This document shows, in pieces, positions 48,250 through 48,536 of a stretch of 64,000 nt of DNA. The first letter of the stretch is position 1; every line of letters starts with the position of its first letter. The notes below the pieces were generated by a model. The model searched no databases. It worked only from the letters and a program-made list of their open reading frames with translations, and was not told where the DNA came from. The position numbers were made by a program, and so were the translations under genes. This DNA comes from Escherichia coli (GTDB taxonomy: Bacteria; Pseudomonadota; Gammaproteobacteria; Enterobacterales; Enterobacteriaceae). The DNA lies in the NCBI RefSeq assembly GCF_013315695.1, contig NZ_CP054353.1; one strand, given 5' to 3'.

Positions 48250-48300
48250 TGTTATCGCCTTCGTGATGGTAATCAGATATATCTAAATAATTTTCGTAAA

Positions 48301-48325
48301 TGATAATGATTGTTAATCATGATAA
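48301..48325. promoter_or_regulatory. Fur box in the yqjH promoter
   Basis: tgataatgattgttaatcatgataa is a close match to GATAATGATAATCATTATC. Confidence 0.65.
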
Positions 48326-48399
48326 ATGCAAGCGATTTGTAGAACTGATATATCTGTAGTCTGATAAGACGCGCAACCTCTTATCAAGCATTATTGCTC

Positions 48400-48440
48400 A
48401 ATGTCGGATGCGGCGTGAACGCCTTATCCGGCCTACGTGT
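48400..48440. repeat. REP element
   Basis: gccggatgcggcgtgaacgccttatccggcctacg-type REP sequence. Confidence 0.5.
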
Positions 48441-48502
48441 GAGATGAGTCCACATTTAAAAATCATTTTTATTCTTGCAAGAGTGCTCATATCAGATATA
48501 AA

Positions 48503-48516
48503 TTAGATATATCTAA
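48503..48516. promoter_or_regulatory. perfect palindrome TTAGATATATCTAA just upstream of yqjI; candidate YqjI operator (related copies at 48275-48284 and 48346-48355)
   Basis: AGATATATCT core occurs three times in the yqjH-yqjI intergenic region. Confidence 0.45.
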
Positions 48517-48536
48517 TTAAGCAAAAGGAGGCTGAT

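Follow-up and report, generated by a model that had tools for sequence, protein, structure and literature searches.

The divergent nfeF-nfeR (yqjH-yqjI) control region of Escherichia coli: predicted dual repression by Fur and NfeR, two conserved operators and an apparently late REP insertion

The ferric reductase gene nfeF (yqjH) and the repressor gene nfeR (yqjI) of Escherichia coli are divergently oriented, and the whole of the 287-bp region between them (positions 48250-48536 of the window, that is, of the 64,000-nucleotide stretch of DNA that was analysed) is crowded with a Fur box, related palindromes and REP sequences, which raises the question of which of these elements constitute the switch for the two genes and which are passengers. 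The nfeF coding sequence (47485-48249, minus strand) is a 254-aa open reading frame (ORF) with the Pfam domains FAD_binding_9 and SIP and encodes an NADPH-dependent ferric-chelate (siderophore) reductase; that of nfeR (48537-49160, plus strand) is a 207-aa ORF encoding a PadR-family repressor with a Cys/His-rich N-terminal extension and a PadR winged-helix domain at residues 67-136 (PF03551; 56.6 bits in Pfam versus a cut-off of 27). Several E. coli genomes match bases 47400-49300 with 100% identity; in these genomes the RefSeq gene names are tRNA-Ile, nfeF, nfeR and aer, and the products of nfeF and nfeR are given as NADPH-dependent ferric chelate reductase and DNA-binding regulator, respectively. 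The ORFs, the Pfam domains and the RefSeq names confirm the initial annotation of the region as lying between yqjH and yqjI, and the divergent pair of a SIP-family ferric reductase and a PadR-family repressor is found among the neighbours ileX, mug and aer. A structure search returned only distant PadR relatives among the solved structures and none for NfeR. The K-12 reference record contains no annotated repeat or regulatory features in the nfeF-nfeR intergenic region, and a terminator scan of the region found none. Seven intergenic small ORFs of 21-32 aa were rejected as not credible; each crosses the REPs or the variable spacer.

For comparison within the genus, 10 Escherichia alleles were used, namely seven aligned E. 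coli alleles and three further loci (from E. coli, E. albertii and another Escherichia species). Across genera, a scan for NfeR with one genome per species yielded 32 loci from Escherichia, Citrobacter, Enterobacter, Lelliottia, Superficieibacter and Raoultella, of which the 29 loci from the five genera other than Escherichia form the cross-genus set; the intergenic region was extracted from 31 of the 32, the remaining locus lying too near a contig end to show nfeF. The divergent arrangement of nfeF and nfeR is kept in 31/31 of these loci. When the 31 are aligned with the genes as anchors, no variation is seen in GATATATC, some 25 bp from the nfeF ATG, in AATGATAATGATT, which lies 14-16 bp beyond it, or in GCAAG, which is CTTGC on the nfeF strand; the nfeR side has TTGC, then GATA(T/C)A and then TTAGATATATC, which is likewise invariant. 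The CTTGC and TTGC motifs, which correspond to -35 elements, are conserved, with variants found only in compact loci of Enterobacter and Lelliottia (L021, L023-L029, L031 and L033).

The Fur box (48296-48320) is a predicted array of overlapping sites with partial consensus matches and a conserved core. Of the two Fur consensuses that were used, the 19-bp GATAATGATAATCATTATC is matched best at 48296 (14/19) and 48302 (13/19), and the 7-1-7 TGATAATNATTATCA at 48301 (12/14); a search with the 19-bp consensus gave no match with three or fewer mismatches. The 7-1-7 score is the joint top of the 64-kb window, and by the 19-mer the site equals five other window positions. The matches stand in a 6-bp register, as expected of a Fur hexamer array; the block 48298-48332 is unchanged within E. 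coli, and the core AATGATAATGATT (48299-48311) is unchanged in the 31 extracted loci from six genera. The strong, near-consensus Fur box that the initial annotation placed at 48301-48325 is conserved, but "near-consensus" overstates a match of 13-14/19. The GATAAT-like hexamer array in a 6-bp register over the -10 element and spacer of an iron-acquisition gene is typical of Fur-repressed enterobacterial promoters, from which the nfeF box differs in this modest agreement with the consensus; furthermore, it contains a 6-3-6 inverted repeat, ATGATTgttAATCAT, in place of the canonical 6-1-6 centre.

The nfeF promoter that this box overlaps is predicted at 48303-48331 on the minus strand, with the -35 element TTGCAT (48331 to 48326), a 17-nt spacer and the -10 element CATTAT (48308 to 48303). 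Both hexamers are within blocks conserved across genera (CTTGC and CATTAT), and the Fur box core, which overlaps the predicted -10 element and spacer of this iron-related gene, recurs in the orthologous promoters. A consensus scan pointed to an alternative nfeF promoter (TTAACA, 18 nt, AATTAT) that is nearer the NfeR site I described below; it was rejected as the main promoter because both hexamers fall on bases that are variable within E. coli and between genera. On the opposite side, the nfeR promoter is predicted at 48475-48502 on the plus strand (-35 TTGCAA at 48475-48480, 16-nt spacer, -10 TATAAA at 48497-48502), given the conserved TTGC and spacing: the TTGC and its distance to GATATAAAT are kept in Escherichia, Citrobacter, Raoultella, Superficieibacter and Enterobacter kpr-6, and the compact Enterobacter and Lelliottia loci have ATTGCA or ATTACA in place of this TTGC. 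The predicted -10 elements of both nfeF (CATTAT) and nfeR (TATAAA) are weak, and all promoter and start positions are to be read as predictions from conserved hexamers; the predicted starts are at about 48296 on the minus strand for nfeF and about 48509 on the plus strand for nfeR. Upstream of the nfeR hexamers, at about -55 to -40 of the predicted promoter, lies the UP-element-like A/T block TTTAAAAATCATTTTT (48455-48470, plus strand), which is invariant in the seven aligned E. coli alleles and of which AAAATCA recurs at the corresponding place in other genera; its function may be that of an UP-like element or, with 10/14 matches to the 7-1-7 consensus, that of a weak Fur-like half-site. The nfeR Shine-Dalgarno sequence AAGGAGG (48525-48531, plus strand), as read from the sequence, is 5 nt before the ATG.

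The palindromes are the elements on which the assignment of NfeR operators turns. Three copies had been listed in the initial annotation; AGATATATCT is indeed present in two exact copies (48275-48284 and 48505-48514), but the third (48346-48355) is a 9/10 copy, TGATATATCT, with one mismatch to AGATATATCT, and what all three have in common is the 8-bp core GATATATC. The perfect 14-mer that had been noticed just before the yqjI ribosome-binding site, TTAGATATATCTAA (48503-48516), is not only a perfect palindrome but can be extended to 18 bp as AATTAGATATATCTAATT (48501-48518). A fourth, partial copy, AGATATAAAT (48494-48503), 11 bp upstream of the 18-bp palindrome, had been missed.

Site I (48272-48287, ATCAGATATATCTAAA), a candidate NfeR operator identified by exact match and conservation, contains the 10-bp perfect palindrome core at 48275-48284; the site is unchanged in the 10 Escherichia alleles, and its GATATATC core is unchanged in 31/31 extracted loci. 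Relative to the predicted nfeF start, it would occupy about +9 to +24. Site IIb (48501-48518), supported by exact match and by the weight matrix described below, is the 18-bp perfect palindrome over the predicted nfeR start, and its TTAGATATATC is identical across six genera. Site IIa (48491-48506) is a half-operator, cAGATATAAAT, that is positioned exactly 11 bp upstream of IIb, overlaps the predicted -10 element and is invariant in E. coli. At this distance from IIb, Escherichia, Citrobacter, Raoultella, Superficieibacter and Enterobacter kpr-6 have the form TAGATATA(A/G)(A/T)T, and a diverged IIa copy, usually AGATATAGTTT, is present at the equal offset in the compact Enterobacter and Lelliottia loci, so that the half-site or its diverged copy is always exactly 11 bp upstream of the full palindrome. 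In these compact loci, about 90-135 bp after the nfeF start codon, four phased 11-bp repeats follow one another (AGATTGCATCT, GAATATATCTT, AGATATAGTTT and AGATATATCAA), an arrangement that suggests NfeR lined up along one face of the helix. Site II thus appears to be a composite, a half-site followed 11 bp on by an 18-bp perfect palindrome, that covers the predicted nfeR -10 element and start. Among the three palindromes, only site I and site IIb seem to be conserved operators, and the real second element at the nfeR promoter would be the half-site that precedes the perfect palindrome by 11 bp.

A weight matrix for the operator, built from the non-Escherichia sites only (consensus ATTAGATATATCTAAT), ranks IIb first (27.2 bits) and site I second (24.3 bits) among the approximately 64,000 positions of the window; at the same positions, the middle copy scores 13.4 bits (rank 4) and IIa 5.0 bits (rank 14). 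Operator-like matches were also obtained at 12943-12958 (TTTTGATATGTCGAAA, 17.5 bits), within a 506-aa ORF, and at 47471-47486 (TTTTTATATATCAGTT, 11.5 bits), at the nfeF stop codon; both are probably chance matches and were not retained as operators.

Within Escherichia, three blocks are invariant, namely TAATCAGATATATCTAAAT (site I), AAATGATAATGATTGTTAATCATGATAAATGCAAG (the Fur box and -35 element) and ATCAGATATAAATTAGATATATCTAAT (site II), and in E. coli the intervening sequence differs by as much as about 10%. This inter-block sequence is unusually diverged for E. coli: when 401 bp were compared, identity to the present allele was at least 99% in 87 of 5460 records and 90-95% in 4375. The changes concentrate in a degenerate REP and in the flanks of the REPs, and they include an 11-bp indel. 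The spacer at 48356-48454, which is flanked by invariant operators, separates E. coli into two deep haplotypes, one with a region of 287 bp and one with a region of 276 bp. The K-12 yqjH-yqjI region represents the same locus with the same length of 287 bp; site I, the Fur block and IIa/IIb are identical base for base, and REPs lie between the operators in both strains. The present allele nevertheless differs from that of K-12, with 94.5% identity over the 401 bp, and the differences are confined to the non-operator spacer, the degenerate left REP and the middle near-palindrome (TGATATATCT here and TGATATGTCT in K-12).

Measured between their centres, sites I and II are 230, 219 or 217 bp apart in Escherichia; the distance falls to 172-185 bp in Citrobacter and Raoultella, to 166 bp in Superficieibacter and to 96-97 bp in Enterobacter and Lelliottia. 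Expressed in helical turns, these spacings are 21.9, 20.9, 17.5, 16.6, 15.8 and about 9.1-9.2, with no common fraction. Within E. coli, the 11-bp indel would allow a phase-locked loop between the two sites; across genera, the fractional turns span the whole range, and because the helical phase is not conserved, simple phase-locked looping is unsupported and was rejected as a conserved constraint.

The elements of the region exist, are non-random and are conserved in sequence and position. The explanation that best accommodates them, to which we assign a probability of about 90%, is a shared divergent control region with dual repression of nfeF by Fur and NfeR, autorepression of nfeR and a REP unit that is a passenger. 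Two independent repressors would act on nfeF at the predicted sites. Fe2+-Fur would bind the overlapping array at 48296-48320 that covers the spacer and -10 element of the predicted promoter, and would repress by occlusion; NfeR would bind site I (48272-48287), just downstream of the predicted start, and given the position of the site at about +9 to +24, it would therefore block RNA polymerase just past the start. NfeR is further predicted to repress its own gene through the composite site II, in which IIa lies over the -10 element and IIb over the start, an arrangement that implies autorepression by occlusion; the 11-bp register between them, one helical turn, would let two NfeR dimers sit on the same helix face. 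NfeR would leave the DNA when its Cys/His-rich N-terminus binds metal.

Known PadR operators are of the spaced ATGT-N8-ACAT type. Among the closest known analogues of the proposed circuit are the PadR-type repressors that control divergent, autoregulated targets, such as PadR of Bacillus subtilis and LmrR of Lactococcus lactis, with which NfeR shares the PadR winged-helix domain and palindromic operators, one of them over its own promoter. NfeR differs from these proteins in its Cys/His-rich N-terminal metal-binding extension and in its operator, ATTAGATATATCTAAT, an AT-rich palindrome that is contiguous where the PadR type is spaced. The N-terminal extension differs greatly in length and sequence between genera, with the PadR domain being conserved; in tblastn searches with NfeR, the matches in Enterobacter and Raoultella start at query residues 32-56.

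A different count of operators results if all three AGATATATCT-like palindromes are taken as true NfeR operators, the middle copy helping to bridge sites I and II. The middle near-palindrome (48346-48355, 9/10) is located at about -50 to -59 of the predicted nfeF start; its 8-bp core GATATATC is intact here, its matrix score places it fourth in 64 kb and reaches 16.6 bits in some alleles, and a GATATA half-site is present at the corresponding position, some 10-20 bp beyond the -35 element, in Citrobacter, Raoultella, Superficieibacter and Enterobacter kpr-6. However, the sequence of this copy varies in E. coli (GATATGTC in K-12 and O157, GAAACATC in one strain), with sites I and II being invariant, and its flanks are unlike the operator consensus. 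The alleles read TGATATGTCT in K-12 and O157 and TGAAACATCT in one strain; outside Escherichia, the middle position holds a GATATA or GATACA half-site in a T-tract, or nothing, and the full palindrome is found in Escherichia only. Moreover, the Citrobacter half-site is embedded in the T-tract TTTTTTGATATAG, which is an A-tract directly upstream of the -35 element on the nfeF strand and could equally be an UP-like element. The published K-12 footprints reportedly comprise two sites, not three. We consider it unlikely that all three palindromes are operators. This strain, ST131 and E. albertii have an intact core at the middle copy; the core is weakened in K-12 and O157 and has been lost in some strains. 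It is likewise unlikely that NfeR binds the middle copy where the core is intact, and that the copy amounts to a third, weak operator varying by allele. If there were such a third operator, E. coli lineages would differ in the tightness or cooperativity of nickel/NfeR control of the ferric reductase, and the two-site picture from K-12 would under-describe the natural locus. Under the preferred reading, with operators at sites I and II, the middle near-palindrome would be at most a weak auxiliary site.

The REP element that had been placed at 48400-48440 is real (48403-48436) and proves to be the intact half of a two-REP unit. This right half of a BIME-like pair is a Y-type REP, identified by its genomic repeat count, hairpin fold and naRNA4 alignment: its roughly 35 bp form an imperfect GC-rich palindrome that shows the signature GCCGGATG...CCGGCCTAC, and 32 of its bases recur at a median of at least 36 places per E. 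coli genome. The left half (48358-48389) is a degenerate Z-type REP that aligns with the second hairpin of naRNA4 and folds as a hairpin; no other part of the region varies as much between E. coli alleles, and the 11-bp indel lies within it. The two REPs are opposed and cover the full length of the two-hairpin naRNA4 model, as in a BIME, with the left REP degenerate. naRNA4 is a REP-derived family (REP325), and the 76-bp two-REP unit (48358-48433) and the Rfam model (RF02564) align over their full lengths, at 53.3 bits (E = 4e-9) on the minus strand, the score on the plus strand being 37.1 bits. Because the score is below the gathering score of 59.5, the unit is regarded as a REP-pair look-alike and not as a member of naRNA4, the similarity between REP pairs explaining the match. 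Accordingly, the unit resembles BIMEs and naRNA4 in its opposed Y-type and Z-type hairpins, its length of about 76 bp and the full-length alignment, and differs from them in its sub-threshold score, the degenerate Z-type half and its occurrence as a single unit rather than a cluster.

The position of this unit, midway between the two operators, invites the alternative view that the REP pair is a working part of the switch, either as a platform for bending by IHF, HU or gyrase or as the source of a naRNA4-like RNA. The full-length naRNA4 alignment is in line with this view, and so is the size of the indel, which sets the operator centres 230 or 219 bp apart in the two E. coli haplotypes, a difference of about one helical turn. 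The comparative evidence points the other way. The REP signature is absent from all the non-Escherichia loci examined (28 of 28 extracted regions from Citrobacter, Enterobacter, Lelliottia, Superficieibacter and Raoultella), which retain the remaining architecture; the left half is both degenerate and the most variable segment; the operators lie anywhere from 96 to 230 bp apart, without a conserved phase; and any two-REP unit would be expected to match the Rfam model comparably. Mutated REP elements are said, in the abstract of Wang et al. from 2014, to have had no effect on YqjI regulation, the REPs being dispensable. A regulatory role of the REP pair is accordingly very unlikely. Since they are missing from every non-Escherichia locus, the REPs fall outside the conserved regulatory design, and the unit at 48358-48436 is best interpreted as a late, Escherichia-specific passenger insertion that would have lengthened the spacer between the operators and would not belong to the ancestral circuit. 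REPs are also encountered on the other side of nfeR: the nfeR-aer gap is 28 bp here (window 49161-49188) and 153 bp in K-12 (4404-4556 of locus L041), where it contains a two-REP BIME, and another strain has an extra 77 bp. The REP content around the nfeF-nfeR locus is fluid.

The clustering of the palindromes was assessed with 5000 dinucleotide-preserving shuffles of the 287-bp region: three copies were observed versus 0.065 expected for the 10-mer with at most one mismatch and 0.035 for the exact 8-mer. The notion that the palindromes are functionless chance products of an AT-rich, TA-repeat-prone intergenic region, which might draw on its A+T content of 65% (49% in the window) and on the ease with which (TA)n-like palindromes form, is effectively refuted by conservation, the sites being unchanged over six genera while neighbouring bases diverge, and not one of the 5000 local shuffles gave three copies.

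The control region is already known and experimentally established in K-12, and its features are real but ordinary. The primary study of the K-12 yqjH-yqjI pair is reportedly that of Wang, Wu and Outten in 2011 (J Bacteriol 193:563), and a later study by Wang et al. in 2014 (J Bacteriol 196:3199) is said in its abstract to have found YqjI footprints at the yqjH promoter (site I) and, in extended form, at the yqjI promoter (site II), the two sites being separated by nearly 200 bp and both being required for full repression, with regulation reportedly being harmed when the intergenic region was shortened. The comparative data fit each of these points from 2014, in that the strong operators number two, site II is composite and the REP pair is restricted to Escherichia, and the dual Fur/NfeR reading with nfeR autoregulation agrees with what both studies reportedly found. 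According to published work on Klebsiella, NfeR represses the adjacent ferric reductase gene nfeF, and excess nickel relieves this repression; deletion of nfeR raises nfeF expression 85-fold in Klebsiella, whose virulence in an insect model depends in part on nfeR (PMC7981267). Another paper places yqjH in the Fur regulon (PMC9501238). Together with the sequence anatomy and the conservation in six genera, these two papers support the initial proposal of dual control by iron/Fur and metal/YqjI with autoregulation of yqjI (PMC7981267; PMC9501238).

The locus ties nickel stress to iron acquisition: NfeR would keep the ferric-siderophore reductase off until nickel, or low iron via Fur, demands its expression. 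What is added here is comparative only, namely the cross-genus operator consensus ATTAGATATATCTAAT, the 11-bp-phased composite site II, the apparently late, Escherichia-specific REP insertion and the lack of conservation of the third palindrome, and none of these would surprise a specialist. Elsewhere in the neighbourhood, a 187-aa gene of the ybiA family (46105-46668, plus strand; riboflavin-intermediate N-glycosidase in RefSeq) is found between rpoD and mug; at its position, K-12 MG1655 has only a 79-bp gap, which indicates a strain-variable insertion.
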